From: a virus
Taxonomy: Duplodnaviria; Heunggongvirae; Uroviricota; Caudoviricetes
IMG/VR virus record: IMGVR_UViG_3300014520_000035
Strand: one strand, 5' to 3'
Length of the DNA: 7,538 nt
Position 1 is the stretch's first letter, and each line of letters starts with the position of its first letter. A program made the translations under genes and the position numbers. Shown piece by piece: positions 1 through 7,538 of this stretch. The notes beneath the pieces are model-generated. The model was given only the letters and a program-made list of their open reading frames with translations, had not been told where the DNA came from and searched no databases.

Positions 1-76
1 GTGCCGCGATGAAACGGGTATTGAGGGTATATAAAAGAACATCAATGGGTACACAATGATGAAACAGGTGAGTTGA

Positions 77-111
77 GTTCAAACTGTAGTACAATTCTCT
101 CCAGTTTGAAC
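77..111 (+). other. 10-bp perfect inverted repeat (stem 77-86 / 102-111, 15-nt loop) in the emrE leader, ending immediately before the emrE Shine-Dalgarno
   Basis: Read directly: gttcaaactg ... cagtttgaac are exact reverse complements; followed by aggaaag then ATG at 127. No U-tract after it, so not a typical intrinsic terminator. Confidence 0.35.
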
Positions 112-126
112 AGGAAAGAATATTCT

Positions 127-459
127 ATGAACCCTTATATTTATCTTGGTGGTGCAATACTTGCAGAGGTCATTGGTACAACCTTAATGAAGTTTTCAGA
201 AGGTTTTACACGGTTATGGCCATCTGTTGGTACAATTATTTGTTATTGTGCATCATTCTGGTTATTAGCTCAGACGCTGGCTTATATTCCTACAGGGATT
301 GCTTATGCTATCTGGTCAGGAGTCGGTATTGTCCTGATTAGCTTACTGTCATGGGGACTTTTCGGCCAACGGCTGGACCTGCCAGCCATTATAGGCATGA
401 TGTTGATTTGTGCCGGTGTGTTGGTTATTAATTTATTGTCACGAAGCACACCACATTAA
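127..459 (+). CDS. emrE: SMR-family multidrug efflux transporter EmrE (110 aa)
   Basis: Translation from ATG 127 (MNPYIYLGGAILAEVIGTTLMKFSEGF...LLSRSTPH) matches E. coli EmrE as I recall it, four hydrophobic helices with the conserved glutamate in helix 1 (AEVIGT). AGGAAAG Shine-Dalgarno 8-14 nt upstream. The ORF-track start at 73 adds an unconserved 18-aa extension and is probably not the real start. Confidence 0.93.
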   Translation: MNPYIYLGGAILAEVIGTTLMKFSEGFTRLWPSVGTIICYCASFWLLAQTLAYIPTGIAYAIWSGVGIVLISLLSWGLFGQRLDLPAIIGMMLICAGVLVINLLSRSTPH

Positions 460-490
460 AAATAATTTGTTTCTAAACGACTAAAATATG

Positions 491-525
491 GAGGCTCTTA
501 TATTTATATGAGCCTCGTTTTATGC
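491..525 (+). terminator. Probable intrinsic terminator of emrE
   Basis: Perfect 7-bp stem gaggctc (491-497) / gagcctc (510-516) with AT-rich loop, followed by T-rich gttttatgcttttt, about 30 nt after the emrE stop. Confidence 0.5.
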
Positions 526-714
526 TTTTTGTTAATGTCTTTATTTTTTTATGTATTCTTTTGTGCTTTCAAGATTATGGCGTAAGAAAATTGCAATACG
601 ATTATTGTTGTATATTCAAGATAATGTGACCTTAATTGTCTTTTTAAATAAAAATTAAACAAAATTATATCCCACCACTAAGGTTTATAAAAGCATACGT
701 TAGCAGGTGTCACC

Positions 715-2241
715 ATGAAAAAAGCCATAGCATATATGCGATTTTCATCACCAGGTCAGATGTCTGGCGACTCATTAAACCGACAGAGAAGACTTATTGC
801 TGAATGGTTAAAGGTAAATAGTGATTATTATCTTGATACCATAACATATGAAGATTTAGGATTAAGTGCATTCAAAGGAAAGCATGCACAATCAGGAGCT
901 TTTTCGGAATTTTTAGATGCTATAGAGCATGGTTATATATTGCCAGGAACTACATTGTTAGTTGAAAGTCTGGACAGACTTTCAAGAGAAAAAGTCGGTG
1001 AAGCGATTGAACGTCTGAAATTGATTTTGAATCACGGTATTGATGTTATAACTCTTTGCGACAATACAGTCTATAATATTGACTCTTTGAATGAGCCATA
1101 TTCATTAATAAAAGCCATACTTATAGCACAAAGGGCAAATGAAGAAAGCGAGATAAAGTCAAGTCGGGTTAAATTATCATGGAAGAAAAAACGGCAGGAT
1201 GCACTGGAATCAGGTACGATTATGACGGCGTCTTGTCCGAGATGGCTCTCCTTAGATGACAAAAGAACGGCTTTTGTTCCAGACCCCGACAGGGTGAAAA
1301 CTATTGAGCTAATTTTTAAACTCAGGATGGAAAGGCGCTCATTGAATGCAATAGCCAAGTATTTAAATGATCATGCTGTAAAGAATTTCTCAGGAAAAGA
1401 AAGTGCATGGGGACCTTCTGTAATTGAAAAATTATTAGCGAATAAAGCTCTGATAGGTATATGCGTACCTTCATATCGTGCAAGAGGTAAAGGAATAAGT
1501 GAAATCGCTGGCTATTATCCCAGAGTCATATCAGATGATTTGTTTTACGCTGTACAGGAAATTCGGTTGGCACCTTTTGGTATTAGCAATAGTAGCAAAA
1601 ATCCTATGTTGATAAATCTACTTCGAACAGTTATGAAGTGCGAGGCTTGTGGTAATACCATGATTGTTCATGCGGTATCTAGAAGTTTGCATGGCTATTA
1701 TGTTTGTCCGATGAGAAGACTGCATCGATGTGACAGGCCATCAATAAAGAGAGATTTGGTTGATTATAATATCATTAATGAGTTGCTTTTTAATTGTAGT
1801 AAAATCCAACCAGTTGAAAACAAGAAAGATGCTAATGAAACTTTAGAGTTGAAAATTATTGAGCTCCAGATGAAAATTAATAATTTAATTGCTGCATTAT
1901 CTGTTGCGCCTGAAGTTACCGCTATAGCAGAAAAAATCAGAGTATTAGATAAGGAATTACGAAGGGCTTCTGTATCATTAAAAACTTTGAAGAGTAAAGC
2001 GGTGAGTTCACTTGGTGATTTTCATGCTATTGACTTAACCAGTAAAAATGGGCGAGAGCTATGTCGTACACTTGCCTATAAAACATTCGAAAAAATCATA
2101 ATCAATACAGATAATAAAACCTGTGATATCTATTTTATGAATGGCATTGTTTTTAAACACTATCCTTTAATGAAAACAATATCCGCCCAGCAGGCGATAA
2201 GTACTCTCAAATATATGGTTGATGGTGAGGTTTATTTTTGA
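715..2241 (+). CDS. ybcK: Large serine recombinase (resolvase/invertase catalytic domain plus recombinase domain and Cys-rich zinc-ribbon region), DLP12 YbcK-like, 508 aa
   Basis: N-terminal AIAYMRFSSPGQ fits the serine-recombinase catalytic motif (Y-x-R-x-S-x-x-x-Q). C-terminal half has a CxxC ... C ... C cluster (CEACG ... CPMRRLHRC) and a predicted coiled-coil, as in large serine recombinases. The 255-bp gap to emrE and the length match my recollection of K-12 ybcK. AT-rich codon usage. Confidence 0.88.
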   Translation: MKKAIAYMRFSSPGQMSGDSLNRQRRLIAEWLKVNSDYYLDTITYEDLGLSAFKGKHAQSGAFSEFLDAIEHGYILPGTTLLVESLDRLSREKVGEAIERLKLILNHGIDVITLCDNTVYNIDSLNEPYSLIKAILIAQRANEESEIKSSRVKLSWKKKRQDALESGTIMTASCPRWLSLDDKRTAFVPDPDRVKTIELIFKLRMERRSLNAIAKYLNDHAVKNFSGKESAWGPSVIEKLLANKALIGICVPSYRARGKGISEIAGYYPRVISDDLFYAVQEIRLAPFGISNSSKNPMLINLLRTVMKCEACGNTMIVHAVSRSLHGYYVCPMRRLHRCDRPSIKRDLVDYNIINELLFNCSKIQPVENKKDANETLELKIIELQMKINNLIAALSVAPEVTAIAEKIRVLDKELRRASVSLKTLKSKAVSSLGDFHAIDLTSKNGRELCRTLAYKTFEKIIINTDNKTCDIYFMNGIVFKHYPLMKTISAQQAISTLKYMVDGEVYF

Positions 2242-2265
2242 GTAATAATCACTTTTTCAACCGTG

Positions 2266-2343
2266 CTATAGTAAGAAAGTTAGGTAAGTACATTAAAATT
2301 ATCTATCCTGAACGAAGCGTCCTGAGCTATGGTTTTACTATAG
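2266..2343. repeat. 9-bp perfect inverted repeat ctatagtaa (2266-2274) / ttactatag (2335-2343), each containing the palindrome CTATAG, bracketing the probable promoter region of the first cassette ORF
   Basis: Read directly from sequence; candidate operator pair or recombination half-sites. Function not established. Confidence 0.3.
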
Positions 2344-2352
2344 AGACTGCCA

Positions 2353-2676
2353 ATGGATGCTGGCGTTCTCGTTCTAGCAGTTCAACAATACCCAATCACA
2401 AAACAATTCACTGATAACGAACTTTGCACACTCGCCTGGTTATGGCGAGCAGGGAATGTGATGTTAATTACCTACCAGAACGTTACTCCTCTTCTTCAGG
2501 TTGCGGAGCATCGTGAAGCTGGTCGCTTCACTTCTATCGAGCAAGAATATCCCCAGATACTCAATAAGGCACAGGCAATCCTTGCCAGAGAAACGGCACA
2601 TGTAAAATTCCGGCCGTGGCAGGATGATAAGTGGAGTCGAGTTTTGCCGCATTTACGTTCGGATCGATTACAGTAG
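2353..2676 (+). CDS. Hypothetical protein (107 aa; alternative start ATG 2461 gives 71 aa)
   Basis: Open frame from the six-frame track with no family I recognise. The in-frame ATG at 2461 has a better Shine-Dalgarno (AGGGA, about 6 nt upstream) than the ATG at 2353. Occupies the position where K-12 carries ybcL. Confidence 0.45.
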   Translation: MDAGVLVLAVQQYPITKQFTDNELCTLAWLWRAGNVMLITYQNVTPLLQVAEHREAGRFTSIEQEYPQILNKAQAILARETAHVKFRPWQDDKWSRVLPHLRSDRLQ

Positions 2677-2699
2677 ATTCCAATTAACAATGAGAAACA

Positions 2700-3125
2700 C
2701 ATAGCCACCCCGTGGTATTGAAACCATATAATGTTGGATTTGAAAACAGATCTTTTTCCATGTATTAATAACTACATCCCCGCGAGTGATTCAAAAAGGA
2801 GGGCCCAATTTTGTCCGAGTTTTTGTATTCCCCCGCATGCCGCTGCGGAGCACTACATCTGAGTGTCTGACTAGGGGATAAAATTAGACTGGATAGTGAG
2901 AAGAAAGTGGCGTGCTAGGCTGTGCCGAGTGCTACCAGTACACCCTGGGGGTGTGCAGCTTTCGCCGAGACTGTAGTGGGTATCGGTTAATGCACGAAAA
3001 ACCGAGAGGTCAGACAACCAATTTGCCGTAGGATTGTTTCCGGTGCGATACCGGTGTACTAACTGAAAGCAATGCGAAAAAGCATAAACTCGGTCCTTCA
3101 GTCGCCCTACACACTATTTACTAAG
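2700..3125. ncRNA. Candidate structured non-coding RNA, or long structured leader of the downstream ORF; strand undetermined
   Basis: About 430 bp with stop codons dense in all six frames (no ORF in the track; longest I find is 43 codons, 2731-2862), yet noticeably more G+C-rich than the two AT-rich ORFs flanking it, with many short G/C-rich complementary segments. No tandem repeats and no tRNA or tmRNA signatures. Confidence 0.3.
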
Positions 3126-3137
3126 AAGGGCTAAAGC

Positions 3138-3494
3138 ATGGATACAATTATCACATGGATGGGAGATCGTCTGTTGGGGTGGATAACAAACAAATCCGAT
3201 CTGCGGCAGAGGGCAATCACTGGATTAACTCCTGCGATTTATTCAACAATTTTATATACTGAAAAATTAAAACGTGGTGAGCCTAATAACCCAAACGAAG
3301 AAGAAAAACTTTATAGGCTTTGGTATGAAGCGTCTTCCCAAGTCGTAGACTTTGATCGAGAGCTGGCTAAAAGATGTTTAGATAAATCAGAATATTGGCT
3401 TCATTCTGAATTATATAGCCCTGAGAAAGTTGGAGAGCTAAACATTTCTTTGGTTGGTATGAAGGCAACGCTTGAAGGAATAAAGCACAATTAA
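3138..3494 (+). CDS. Hypothetical protein (118 aa), low-GC accessory gene
   Basis: ORF with Shine-Dalgarno AAGGG 6-10 nt upstream of ATG 3138; strongly AT-rich codon usage unlike the downstream nin genes; no family recognised (charged, likely soluble). Confidence 0.55.
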   Translation: MDTIITWMGDRLLGWITNKSDLRQRAITGLTPAIYSTILYTEKLKRGEPNNPNEEEKLYRLWYEASSQVVDFDRELAKRCLDKSEYWLHSELYSPEKVGELNISLVGMKATLEGIKHN

Positions 3495-3681
3495 AACCTT
3501 TGATTTGCGATAATCAACTCGCCATAATCATGTCATCGGAGCCTGAACAACTCCGGTGACTTCTGCGCTAAACGGGGACGTTTATGCGCACACACAATCC
3601 AAACTCTCTTCTCCCTCCACAGATGCAGAAATGCACCTGCGATATATTGTATCCAGCGTTTGACCTCTGCGGAGGTGAAGC

Positions 3682-4137
3682 GTGAATCTCCCACAAGATG
3701 GCATCAAATTACATCGCGGTAACTTCACCGCTATCGGTCGGCAGATCCAGCCTTATCTGGAGGAGGGCAAATGCTTTCGCATGGTGCTTAAACCGTGGCG
3801 TGAGAAACGCAGTCTTTCCCAGAATGCACTCAGCCACATGTGGTACAGCGAAATCAGTGAATACCTCATCAGCAGGGGTAAAACGTTCGCTACTCCAGCT
3901 TGGGTAAAAGATGCTCTCAAACACACATATCTCGGTTATGAAACCAAAGACCTGGTTGATGTTGTAACCGGTGATATCACCACTATCCAGTCGTTACGCC
4001 ATACCTCCGATCTTGATACCGGAGAGATGTATGTCTTCCTGTGTAAGGTTGAAGCCTGGGCGGTGAATATTGGCTGCCACCTGACTATTCCGCAGAGCTG
4101 CGAGTTCCAGCTGCTCCGCGACAAGCAGGAGGCGTAA
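3682..4137 (+). CDS. ybcN: NinB/Orf-family protein YbcN (151 aa), GTG start
   Basis: Translation [39 protein letters not shown]... matches DLP12 YbcN as I recall it; GGAGG Shine-Dalgarno at 3671-3675 before GTG 3682. Confidence 0.9.
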
Positions 4138-4307
4138 TGGCTACACCGCTTATTCGTGTCATGAACGGACACATCTACAGAGTACCAGATCGTCGTAAGC
4201 GTAAACCGGAGCTGAAGCCTTCCGAAATACCAACACTGCTCGGATATACCGCCAGCCTGGTTGATAAAAAATGGTTGCGACTGGCAGCAAGGAGGAATCA
4301 TGGCTGA
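4137..4307 (+). CDS. ninE: NinE family protein (56 aa)
   Basis: Not in the ORF track (too short). Manual translation from ATG 4137 (overlapping the ybcN TAA as TAATG) gives [56 protein letters not shown], the lambdoid NinE sequence. Confidence 0.85.
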   Translation: MATPLIRVMNGHIYRVPDRRKRKPELKPSEIPTLLGYTASLVDKKWLRLAARRNHG

Positions 4308-4590
4308 TTTGAGAAAAGCAGCGCGTAGTCGGGAATGCCAGGTAAGAATCCCTGGCGTATGTAATGGCAACCCTGAAACGTCTGTACTGGCACATATCCG
4401 GCTGACTGGATTGTGCGGCACCGGTACCAAACCGCCAGACCTGATTGCCACCATTGCATGTTCTGCCTGCCACGACGAAATCGACCGCCGCACACATTTT
4501 GTCGATGCTGCATATGCAAAAGAATGCGCGCTGGAAGGTATGGCGAGAACACAGGTTATCTGGCTGAAAGAGGGGGTTATTAAGGCGTGA
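4300..4590 (+). CDS. ybcO: DUF1364-family protein YbcO (96 aa), putative nuclease
   Basis: Translation [64 protein letters not shown]... with its Cys cluster. ATG 4300 overlaps the ninE stop (ATGGCTGA) and is preceded by AGGAGG. The ORF-track start at 4261 would overlap ninE and lacks a Shine-Dalgarno. Confidence 0.88.
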
Positions 4591-4949
4591 ATACCTACAG
4601 CATCACATTACCCTGGCCTCCGAGCAATAATCGCTATTACCGCCATAATCGCGGGCGCACGCACGTCAGCGCAGAGGGGCAGGCATACCGCGATAACGTC
4701 GCCCGAATCATTAAAAACGCAATGCTGGATATCGGCCTGGCTATGCCTGTGAAAATCCGCATTGAGTGCCACATGCCGGATCGCCGTCGCCGTGACCTGG
4801 ATAATCTGCAAAAAGCCGCTTTTGACGCACTCACTAAAGCAGGTTTCTGGCTGGATGATGCTCAGGTCGTTGATTACCGCGTTGTGAAGATGCCTGTTAC
4901 CAAAGGTGGGAGGCTGGAACTGACCATCACCGAAATGGGGAATGAATGA
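4587..4949 (+). CDS. rusA: Holliday-junction resolvase RusA (120 aa), GTG start
   Basis: Translation [38 protein letters not shown]... matches RusA; start overlaps the ybcO stop (GTGA). Confidence 0.93.
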
Positions 4950-5086
4950 TGTTTGAGTTTTATATGGCAGAACGTCTTCGCCACCGCTGGGGGCGTCTGC
5001 GCTTATATCGTTTCCCCGGTTCTGTTTTGACCGATTACCGAATACTGAAGAATTACGCCAAAACCCTGACAGGAGCAGGAGTATGA
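4946..5086 (+). CDS. ylcG: Small DLP12 protein YlcG (46 aa)
   Basis: Manual translation from ATG 4946 (overlapping the rusA stop, ATGA): [46 protein letters not shown]. Not in the ORF track because of its length. Confidence 0.75.
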
Positions 5087-5171
5087 AGTCAGAGATAACA
5101 ATCAACTAATACTGTTTCGTTGATTTTTGCTTGTAATTGGCGTTCTGGTCTGATTTTTGTGGAGTAAGTTG

Positions 5172-5555
5172 ATGCGTGATATTCAGATGGTTCTTGAGCG
5201 TTGGGGAGCGTGGGCGGCTAATAATCATGAAGATGTGACCTGGTCGTCCATTGCCGCCGGTTTTAAGGGATTAATTACTTCAAAAGTAAAATCTCGCCCG
5301 CAATGTTGTGACGATGACGCGATGATCATTTGCGGGTGCATGGCCCGTCTGAAAAAGAACAACAGCGATTTGCACGATTTATTAGTAGATTATTATGTAG
5401 TCGGTATGACATTCATGTCACTGGCAGGTAAGCATTGCTGCTCTGATGGTTATATCGGGAAAAGGTTACAGAAGGCTGAGGGCATAATTGAAGGGATGTT
5501 AATGGCATTAGATATCCGGTTAGAGATGGATATCGTTGTTAATAACTCTAATTAA
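5172..5555 (+). CDS. quuD: Late-gene antiterminator Q (127 aa)
   Basis: Translation [34 protein letters not shown]... with Cys-rich region ([12 protein letters not shown]) matches DLP12 QuuD; GGAG Shine-Dalgarno 7 nt before ATG 5172. The ORF-track start at 5157 is a TTG without a Shine-Dalgarno. Confidence 0.88.
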
Positions 5556-5735
5556 TACGCCAATTATTTACTAAAAGTTATTAAAAATGGGGCGTTGAAA
5601 CGCCCCCAAAAATAAAGGGTAATATATAACAGAAGGTTTGTATAGTTAGAAGCAAGGTTGTGCTTCTAAAGGAAGTGGCTTGAGGGAGCCACTTATATGT
5701 TGGGGAGGCAAAGCCTCCCACAACATATCTTTTAG
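5556..5735 (+). promoter_or_regulatory. Probable late regulatory module (PR'-like promoter, qut, short 6S-like leader, tR'-like terminator) downstream of Q, also serving as the convergent terminator zone with nmpC
   Basis: Three further hairpins at 5648-5667 (agaagca/tgcttct), 5673-5694 (aagtggct/agccactt) and 5695-5728 (atatgttg-gggaggc / gcctccc-a-caacatat), the last followed by cttttag on the + strand. In lambdoid phages PR', qut and tR' lie immediately 3' of Q. Exact -35/-10 not assigned (TTGAAA at 5595 and TAATAT at 5620 are one weak possibility). Confidence 0.4.
5578..5606 (-). terminator. Candidate intrinsic terminator for leftward (nmpC) transcription
   Basis: Stem ggggcg (5589-5594) / cgcccc (5601-5606), loop ttgaaa. 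On the - strand the hairpin is followed by a U-tract (reverse complement of ttattaaaaat); on the + strand by A-rich sequence, so it is oriented for the - strand. Confidence 0.45.
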
Positions 5736-5743
5736 TAATCAAA

Positions 5744-6826
5744 TTAGAACTGGTAAACCATACCTACAGCAACGATATCATCGGTAGCAACGCCAGATGC
5801 TTTCGTGAAATCGCTCTTATCAATCAGGTTGATTTTGTAGTCAACAAAAGTGGACATATTTTTGTTGAAGTAATAGGTTGCACCTACATCAACATATTCA
5901 ACCAGGTCCTGATCACCCCAAACACCCAAGTCTTTTCCTTTAGAATGCAGGTAAGCAACGGATGGACGCAGGCCGAAGTCGAACTGATATTGTGCAACAG
6001 CTTCGAAGTTTTGTGCTTTGTTGGCAATATGGTTATTACCAAAAACAGTCATGTTCTGGGTTTCAGAATAGGTGGTGGCCAGATAGATGTTGTTCGCATC
6101 ATATTTCAGACCAGCTGCCCATACTTCAGCATTTTGACCAGAAGCATTCAGACCGTTGTTACCGTAGATAACCTGATTATTAGTGCGATCAGATTTAGCA
6201 TAGGTTGCACCCACGCCGAATCCTTCATACTCATAAGTAGTTGAGAAACCGAAACCATCGCCATTAGCTTCAGTTACTTCATTTCGGTCATTTTTGCCCT
6301 GATACTGAGCTGCAAAGTTCAGGCCATCAACCAGACCAAAGAAGTCGTTGTTACGATAAGTTGCAACACCTGTGGTGCGACCAGTCATGAATACATCTGT
6401 TTGGGTCCAGGTATCGCCACCGAATTCTGGCAGAACGTCAGTCCACGCACCGATGTCGTATGCTACACCGTAGTTACGGCCGTAATCGATTGAGCCGTAG
6501 TCACCGAATTTCAGGCCTGCAAATGCAAGACGGGTTTTGTCTTTGGAGGAACCTTGAGATTCAGCGCGGTTGCCTTTGAATTCATATTCCCACTGACCGA
6601 AACCAGTCAGTTGATCGTTGATTTGGGTTTCACCTTTGAAGCCAAGACGGGCATAAGTAGTATCACCATCATCTGCATCATTAGAGGAGAAGTAGTGCTT
6701 AGCATTAACTTTCCCGTACAGATCCAGCTTGTTACTGTCTTTATTATAAATTTCAGCTGCCTGAGCAGACATCGCCATCAGTACTGATGCAGCTACAGCA
6801 GAAATTGCCACTGTTAATTTTTTCAT
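5744..6826 (-). CDS. nmpC: Outer-membrane general porin of the OmpC/OmpF/PhoE family, NmpC-like (360 aa), apparently intact
   Basis: Signal peptide [23 protein letters not shown] followed by [17 protein letters not shown]..., C-terminal ...VGMVYQF (terminal Phe, typical of beta-barrel outer-membrane proteins). Full length with no internal stop, whereas I recall K-12 nmpC being disrupted by IS5. Confidence 0.93.
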
Positions 6827-7264
6827 CGTGAGCCCTTTTTTTTGAACTATTATTAAAAAATGATGTCACTGCGCGATAAATATTCATCTAATCAATGTGA
6901 TTATTTCAAGATGTAAGTTTTGGTTTCTCGTTTAATTTGTGAAGTAGATCTCTATTTTTATCTGAACTTTTTTCTATCGAATCCTATTCATGGCTCTTGG
7001 CTGAATAAAAATAAATCTATTAGCCAATTTATATTAATGGCTGTTATTTATAAGCGCTCTATAATTTGAAGGTTCAATTTAAATTGGCTAAAAATAACGC
7101 TGGAAATTATTTGTTGGTTATTTGTTGAGATTTGCTTATGTATTTGTAGTGGTGTTTTCAATACTCGGTAGCATTCTCGCAAATATCATTTAGTGGTTTA
7201 TGTACGTAAAAAATTGGTTATGCTGTTAAGAGTGGTTACTTCGTCACACAGCTTAAACCCGCCG

Positions 7265-7297
7265 TCGAGCGGGTTTTTCCATTTTTTGAGTCTCGAT
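7265..7297 (+). terminator. Strong + strand intrinsic terminator about 100 bp upstream of the essD start
   Basis: Perfect 8-bp stem aaacccgc (7265-7272) / gcgggttt (7279-7286), 6-nt loop, followed by ttccatttttt. The - strand orientation lacks a U-tract. Confidence 0.6.
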
Positions 7298-7399
7298 ATT
7301 AGCTGATAACCCAATACCTGAGTTATTCACTGACTCCGAGTCTGTTACGTTTCGTAGTATTCCCTCAACTTACACCCGCTTTGTCTGCGAGGTGGGGTT

Positions 7400-7468
7400 A
7401 TGAAATCCATGGATAAGTTAACAACGGGTGTCGCCTATGGCACCTCAGCAGGTAGTGCCGGGTACTGA
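7400..7468 (+). pseudogene. essD: Holin gene essD (lambdoid S-like, phage-21-type), truncated after codon 22 by IS insertion
   Basis: GAGGTGGGG Shine-Dalgarno then ATG 7400; translation [22 protein letters not shown] matches the N-terminus of the DLP12/phage-21 holin. The frame then hits a TGA supplied by the first bases of the IS terminus instead of continuing into the transmembrane region. Confidence 0.75.
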
Positions 7469-7538
7469 GAGATCCCCTCATAATTTCCCCAAAACGTAAC
7501 CATGTGTGAATAGATTTTGAGTAAGCAGGGTTGCAGCC
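7465..7538. mobile_element. Terminus of an IS10-like (IS4-family) insertion sequence, extending beyond the window
   Basis: ctgagagatcccctcataatttcccc... closely resembles the IS10 end as I recall it, with a few substitutions in the following 50 bp, which suggests a relative rather than IS10 itself. Confidence 0.8.
7478..7538 (-). CDS. 3' end of IS10-like transposase gene (partial; C-terminal ~19 codons ...AATLLTQNLFTHGYVLGKL-stop)
   Basis: Reverse-complement translation of 7478-7538 gives a peptide nearly identical to the IS10 transposase C-terminus I recall (...AATLLAQNLFTHGYALGKL); the stop codon is the reverse complement of tca at 7478-7480. Confidence 0.7.
   Translation of the reverse strand, partial: AATLLTQNLFTHGYVLGKL

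Follow-up and report, generated by a model that had tools for sequence, protein, structure and literature searches.

An IS10-left (ISVsa5) end at codon 22 of the pinholin gene essD in a lambdoid Escherichia coli prophage

The interrupted essD gene and its prophage

The window analysed here (the whole stretch of DNA, 7,538 nt) ends inside an insertion sequence (IS) that interrupts essD, a pinholin gene of the phage 21 type. Over positions 1-7467, the window is identical at 7466 of 7467 positions to the chromosome of E. coli MB56, a poultry isolate from Cuba, which is the nearest complete genome. The sole mismatch (T/C at 7201) is intergenic. In MB56, the same ATG opens an intact essD encoding 71 amino acids, downstream of which lie rrrD (165 aa) and Rz (155 aa). 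The end of the window carries the following features.

7389-7395, + strand: Shine-Dalgarno-like GAGGTGG, ending 4 nt before the essD ATG (direct sequence reading)
7400-7465, + strand: truncated 5' part of the phage-21-type pinholin gene essD; its 22 sense codons include the Met1/Met4 dual-start motif and equal the first 22 codons of the 71-aa EssD of MB56
7456-7464, either strand: left copy of the 9-bp target-site duplication, TGCCGGGTA; the same 9 bp adjoin the IS outside end in two partner contigs described below (L016, 53-61; L017, 125-133)
7465-7538, - strand: terminal 74 bp of IS10-left (= ISVsa5), transposase-distal 'inside' end; the element runs past the window end
7466-7468, + strand: TGA stop that ends the cut essD frame, formed by IS bases 2-4; intact essD has TGG (Trp23) there
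about 7465-7487: terminal inverted repeat of the IS, part of its inside end
7471-7474: Dam site GATC in the IS inside end
7478-7537, - strand: 3' end of the IS10 transposase gene, with the stop codon at 7478-7480 and the last 19 codons (AATLLTQNLFTHGYVLGKL) at 7481-7537 (translation)

Direct reading of the sequence places the essD start at ATG 7400, from which 22 sense codons (7400-7465) lead to the TGA at 7466-7468. The bases after this stop read CTGAGAGATCCCCTCATAATTTCCCC... up to 7538. The IS terminus CTGAGAGATCCCC begins at 7465, and window and MB56 diverge past 7467 (window ...GGGTACTGagagatcc, MB56 ...GGGTACTGgttttta). Because the CTG at 7465-7467 occurs in both the IS and intact essD, the left junction can be placed to within 3 nt only. 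The preliminary description of this DNA had an IS10-type element interrupting essD and the holin frame ending at codon 22, where the IS10-like end begins. Both statements are borne out, as the tip of the IS lies at 7465 and the stop codon is made of IS bases.

The 9 bp that precede the tip fit an IS10 target. The IS10 target consensus is NGCTNAGCN, with the relaxed form NRCNNNGYN (PMC4574204). TGCCGGGTA conforms to the relaxed form, a fit with a chance of about 1/64, and agrees with the strict hotspot consensus at 3 of its 6 specified positions.

The MB56 prophage has a length of ~42 kb and looks complete, with int, recombination, immunity, replication, nin, Q, lysis, terminase, head, tail and tail fibre genes. 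It is integrated by tRNA-Thr/proA (L015, 3676000-3725000) and not at the DLP12 site of K-12, and the defence gene avs2 flanks its tail-fibre end. The gene order Q, porin, S, R, Rz is shared with the lysis cassettes of phage 21 and K-12 DLP12 (S21 / R21 / Rz-Rz1; essD-rrrD-rzpD/rzoD), from which the window differs in its interrupted holin. DLP12 is a short remnant, whereas the MB56 prophage is a complete-looking 42-kb element with an intact nmpC-type porin gene. In K-12, the homologous nmpC of DLP12 is disrupted by IS5. This is likewise a case of an IS inactivating one gene of a resident lambdoid prophage, but there a different IS hit a lysogenic-conversion gene, while here IS10-left lies in a lysis-timing gene.

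Further upstream, the window carries the following genes.

127-459: emrE, SMR efflux pump
715-2241: ybcK, 508-aa serine recombinase
2353-2676: 107-aa remnant with a P22-type antirepressor C-terminal domain
5744-6826, - strand: intact NmpC/OmpC-type porin gene, 360 aa, between quuD and essD (Pfam Porin_1, E = 4e-152)

The first three form a segment between the replication genes and the nin region. The exact 360-aa porin protein is extremely widespread and occurs in 7500 blocks of the collection. Rfam gave no match in the window and ARAGORN no tRNA.

Identity of the inserted element

The bases 7465-7538 are identical to IS10-left of Tn10 in plasmid R100 (74/74; = ISVsa5) and to the ISVsa5 copies of pHCM1 and a P1-like plasmid (0/74 mismatches each), whereas they match IS10-right at 69 of 74 positions, with five mismatches. 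BLAST of a 76-nt query returned E = 3e-30, which rules out a chance match. The canonical inside-end terminus of IS10, CTGAGAGATCCCCTCATAATTT..., is present at the junction. The stop codon of the transposase gene is offset from the IS tip by 13 nt, as in the annotated 402-aa transposase WP_001352368.1 (L002, L013, L030). The 19 C-terminal codons in the window are identical to this protein, and the rest of the gene lies past the window end. The full-length transposase matches Pfam DDE_Tnp_1.

In R100 (NC_002134.1; L030), IS10-left occupies 36132-37460, beside gltS/jemA, and is the same as the pHCM1 copy annotated as 'ISVsa5' at 1329 of 1329 nt. IS10-right, at 43950-45278 beside tetD, is alike in length and organisation and differs from IS10-left at 15 positions (1314/1329 nt identical). 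A plasmid copy that is one base off IS10-right (L014) encodes a transposase differing from that of IS10-left at 4 of 402 residues. PGAP labels elements identical to the one described here 'IS4-like element ISVsa5 family', and ISfinder lists ISVsa5 under the IS4 family, IS10 group (PMC4036041).

Given the 74/74 identity to IS10-left and the five mismatches to IS10-right, the inserted element is, judged by its bases, IS10-left (= ISVsa5) itself and not a new or diverged relative. The preliminary description had noted a few amino-acid differences from IS10 in the transposase C-terminus and spoke of a relative of IS10. The differences are real with respect to IS10-right, from which the 19 codons deviate at two residues (T389A and V398A); they vanish when IS10-left is the reference, and the notion of a relative has to be given up. 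Most likely, the reference behind that description was IS10-right.

In the bases available (74 nt in the window, 52 and 124 nt in the partner contigs), the element shows no detectable difference from IS10-left of Tn10. The shared features are the transposase C-terminus, the stop-codon offset, the inside-end GATC, RNA-OUT, the 9-bp duplication and the target consensus. The context differs: in Tn10, IS10-left is an arm of the transposon, whereas at essD it stands alone, inside a prophage gene. For annotators, the case is a reminder that the name 'ISVsa5' denotes a sequence that is base for base IS10-left of Tn10.

The IS end was found in 1026 of 5426 complete E. coli genomes (median 2, maximum 45 places per genome); many plasmids of enterobacteria and Vibrio carry it as well. 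According to work attributed to Foster and Kleckner in 1981, IS10-left is reportedly much less active than IS10-right. Despite this, 689 of 1259 E. coli records have the IS10-left isoform as their best match, at up to 45 places per genome.

The right junction and the nature of the insertion

A simple insertion predicts, from the window alone, a right junction of the form [...GGGGATTCATCAG][TGCCGGGTA][CTGGTT...]. In an exact-string search, this junction was matched exactly in the metagenome contig OCAB01000848.1 (L016). It also occurs in L017, a human-gut metagenome contig of the Backhed cohort (PRJEB6456), which was reached through a junction-spanning chimeric protein (P0001) called on four ENA contigs. 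Both contigs start within the outside end of the IS, at 52 and 124 nt from its tip, and these bases have 0 mismatches to IS10-left compared with 4 and 6 to IS10-right. After the outside end, both continue with TGCCGGGTA, CTGGTTT..., the remaining essD and intact rrrD, Rz and Rz1. Between L016 and MB56, 3 of 2200 nt differ (99.9% identity), and the RrrD, Rz and Rz1 of L016 are those of MB56. The partner contigs hold what the preliminary description had hoped to recover by extending the sequence rightward, namely the second IS end, the 9-bp duplication, the rest of essD, the endolysin and Rz.

The three differences between L016 and MB56 (L016 positions 75, 107 and 128) are all synonymous and all fall in essD, within 54 nt to the right of the insertion. 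This clustering suggests a small recombination patch in essD.

What ties the window to L016 and L017 is that all three have the 9-bp duplication and the same isoform of the IS and are nearly identical to one and the same prophage. As there is one inside and one outside end, an exact 9-bp duplication and a target that fits NRCNNNGYN, the insertion reads as that of a lone IS10, with the left and right junctions taken from different records. Control copies of the IS are likewise flanked by 9-bp duplications (CGCCTGGTA in L002, CGCCACGCT in L014). The IS transposase gene runs antisense to essD; the inside end abuts the 5' part of essD, whereas the 3' part adjoins the outside end, which carries pIN, pOUT and RNA-OUT. 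The copy may be internally deleted, the window covering 74 bp of it and the contigs 52 and 124 nt. We consider it highly probable that a single IS10-left copy inserted in codon 22 of essD in a lambdoid E. coli prophage, with the functional consequences proposed below.

The most familiar role of IS10-left is that of a Tn10 arm, and the end seen here could belong to a composite transposon (Tn10 or a relative) with cargo instead of a lone IS. Such a transposon would insert with two outside ends, as Tn10 does in R100 (outside ends at 36132 and 45278, 9-bp duplication CGCTCTGCC). At essD, an inside end lies on the left and an outside end on the right, which leaves the composite reading with a close to negligible probability.

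IS10 can also promote adjacent deletions and inversions. The IS end might then mark such a rearrangement in the genome from which the window derives, with the remainder of essD, the lysis genes and the structural genes located elsewhere. The window does end within the IS, and unrelated breakpoints occur at the same essD codons in other genomes. However, a deletion or inversion would leave no matching duplication, and the right junction combines an exact 9-bp duplication with the same isoform and 99.9% identical prophage DNA. We therefore regard a rearrangement as quite improbable.

The unrelated breakpoints fall at essD codons 20-22 (GCCGGGTACTGG; L028 3540-3560, L029 455-475, and position 1 of L018-L027). 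In GCA_050190445.1, a deletion joins early-region DNA to essD at these codons, and in one ENA scaffold they border an integrase-bearing segment with an IS1 end. Many NCBI draft contigs start exactly there. Codons 20-22 may thus be a mosaic boundary among lambdoid prophages, or the pattern may reflect query bias. Three candidates from this set were rejected as further examples of the insertion. A 52-aa 'partial EssD' (P0014) resembles the allele in that its first residue is the one next to the insertion, but it is found on many NCBI contigs that merely start at that codon, carry no IS and often have another flank (GCTGGC). Two EssD chimeras broken at codon 21/22 (P0026 and P0015) are not IS10 insertions, one being a deletion fusion and the other an integrase-bearing segment.

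The left junction gave no exact match in GTDB representatives, IMG/VR or JGI metagenomes and is spanned in 0 of 5426 complete E. coli genomes. The right junction is likewise without an exact match in GTDB representatives or IMG/VR, and none of the 10 listed places of the porin protein has an IS in essD. An assembly chimera, in which a contig end was wrongly joined to a repeat, would account for a left junction absent from all collections searched, and the 74-nt IS overhang is like a de Bruijn contig end. Yet the break coincides exactly with the canonical tip of IS10, it is preceded by 9 bp that conform to the target consensus, and the predicted reciprocal junction was found in independent assemblies, so that an artefact of this kind is extremely unlikely.

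The contig ends reach 74 nt (window), 52 nt (L016) and 124 nt (L017) into the IS, which correspond to 77-3, 55-3 and 127-3; L017 is named k127. Each of the three resembles the end of a short-read de Bruijn contig at a repeat.

Consequences for lysis

Intact EssD of MB56 matches the Pfam family PF04971 'Bacteriophage P21 holin S' with 121 bits (E = 2e-35), and the 22 codons in the window correspond to its N-terminus, including the dual start M1-K-S-M4. In the hydropathy profile of EssD, residues ~10-27 form a first segment of weak hydrophobicity, and residues ~36-56 a second, strongly hydrophobic one. In S21, it is the second transmembrane segment that forms the pinhole. Breaking off within the first segment, the 22-aa product is without the second and hence without the two-transmembrane organisation of a pinholin. 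Since a 22-residue product without the hole-forming second segment remains, the allele is expected to be a holin null, and both the pinholin and the antiholin product should be null. This supports the earlier claim that the insertion abolishes holin function.

The preliminary description went further and proposed that the insertion blocks the downstream lysis genes by polarity and locks the prophage in a non-lytic, domesticated state. In such a scenario, rrrD and Rz/Rz1 would be silenced in addition to the loss of the holin, and the prophage could not lyse its host. Several points speak for it. Truncation of the holin is certain, polarity is a classical effect of IS insertions, and the essD stop overlaps the rrrD start (TAATG). 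Because of this overlap, some translational coupling could be lost, which would lower RrrD synthesis. In addition, the K-12 DLP12 lysis cassette persists in a defective prophage (PMC7918800).

Transcription across the element points the other way. In full copies of IS10-left, Rfam places RNA-OUT at positions 1215-1284 (97-99 bits), on the strand opposite the transposase. The IS10 isoforms are identical across 1128-1222, just upstream of RNA-OUT, in the presumed pOUT stretch. As the RNA-OUT strand is the essD strand in the orientation of the window, pOUT points out of the IS into the essD remainder and rrrD. In a sigma-70 consensus scan, pOUT went undetected, so the promoter statements made here rest on the Rfam match to RNA-OUT and on the literature; the same consensus gave no promoter in window positions 5500-7538. 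Transcripts from pOUT run into neighbouring genes at ~10% of lacUV5, as measured for IS10 in other contexts (PMC9330008). A constitutive transcript from pOUT read-through may in this way add to rrrD expression. On the essD strand, a simple terminator scan found no terminator-like site inside the IS or from the IS to the end of Rz.

The lysis cassette lies downstream of quuD, whose product matches Pfam Phage_antitermQ. A GC-rich hairpin followed by a T-run is present at 7255-7285 (+ strand), ~115 nt upstream of essD, and could be a terminator that QuuD overrides. A further site resembling a terminator is present at 5606-5589 (- strand), just beyond the 3' end of the porin gene. Because the cassette is situated past quuD and past the hairpin at 7255-7285, its late expression should depend on Q. 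Q-modified polymerase suppresses polarity, as documented for Q-lambda (PMC12360218). By extrapolation from Q-lambda, QuuD-modified polymerase should read through the 1.3-kb insert. Translation of rrrD can draw on a ribosome-binding site of its own, GAGGTG, ahead of its ATG. With QuuD read-through, no intrinsic terminator on that strand and rrrD's own ribosome-binding site, RrrD and the spanin would probably still be made upon induction.

The type of endolysin also matters. RrrD of MB56 and L016 has a Gly/Ala-rich N-terminus of the signal-arrest-release (SAR) type and matches Pfam Phage_lysozyme. Against the PDB, it matches 4zpu (RrrD) and 3hde/3hdf, which we take to be the SAR endolysin of phage 21, with E about 1e-103. 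SAR endolysins such as P1 Lyz and R21 need no holin to reach the periplasm, and on their own they lyse the cell slowly and gradually; the pinholin makes lysis sharp and timed (PMC9025707). By analogy, RrrD would be exported by Sec in the absence of the holin.

Set against this evidence, a polar block of the downstream genes is unlikely, though by no means a negligible prospect. The orientation of pOUT towards rrrD, the lack of a terminator-like site on that strand, Q antitermination and the separate ribosome-binding site of rrrD all count against it, and a SAR endolysin that can be exported without a holin speaks against a locked, non-lytic state. The sister prophage in MB56 is complete-looking and not degraded. 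The preferred reading is that of a holin-null prophage that probably still makes its endolysin. Its expected phenotype, by analogy with the SAR endolysins above, would likely be late, gradual and poorly timed lysis with a lower phage yield or burst, and not a full lysis block. Lysis would be gradual rather than absent because RrrD is a SAR endolysin with holin-independent export.

A different consequence may be imagined from the right junction. There, the reading frame of essD extends upstream without a stop for 68 nt into the IS and includes ATGs at -56 and -35. The result is a chimera of 71 aa, composed of MCIYLNLMILIKIIRGFIS and EssD residues 20-71 (L016 18-212, L017 69-284), which is the protein P0001 called as a gene on 4 ENA contigs. 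According to its hydropathy, the N-terminal segment of the chimera is far more hydrophobic than the native, SAR-like first transmembrane segment. The IS might thus rewire the cassette instead of silencing it, combining low constitutive transcription from pOUT with a chimera that acts as a membrane-locked, antiholin-like pinholin variant. If this were true, the chimera together with RrrD and the spanin might give the host cell-wall or vesicle phenotypes like those of DLP12. Expression of the chimera is doubtful, because it has no Shine-Dalgarno sequence and the ATG at -56 lies within the RNA-OUT stem, and we give such rewiring no more than a slim chance.

To call the prophage domesticated is unwarranted, since the identical segment in MB56 lies in a prophage that looks whole over ~42 kb, from int to tail fibres. 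Taking the completeness of the prophage from MB56, the insertion looks like the first disabling hit on a live prophage and thus an early step of decay.

Taken together, nothing about the element, the gene, the mechanism of transposition or the kind of event is new; this is ordinary biology, and its significance beyond bookkeeping is small. Within these bounds, the locus offers a clean natural case of an IS disrupting a lysis-timing gene in an otherwise complete-looking lambdoid prophage, as a first step of decay. The allele marks a gut E. coli lineage, being found in none of the 5426 complete genomes and present in infant-cohort gut metagenomes. As a natural pinholin null with an intact SAR endolysin, it provides a setting for holin-independent lysis and for Q-dependent read-through of an IS.
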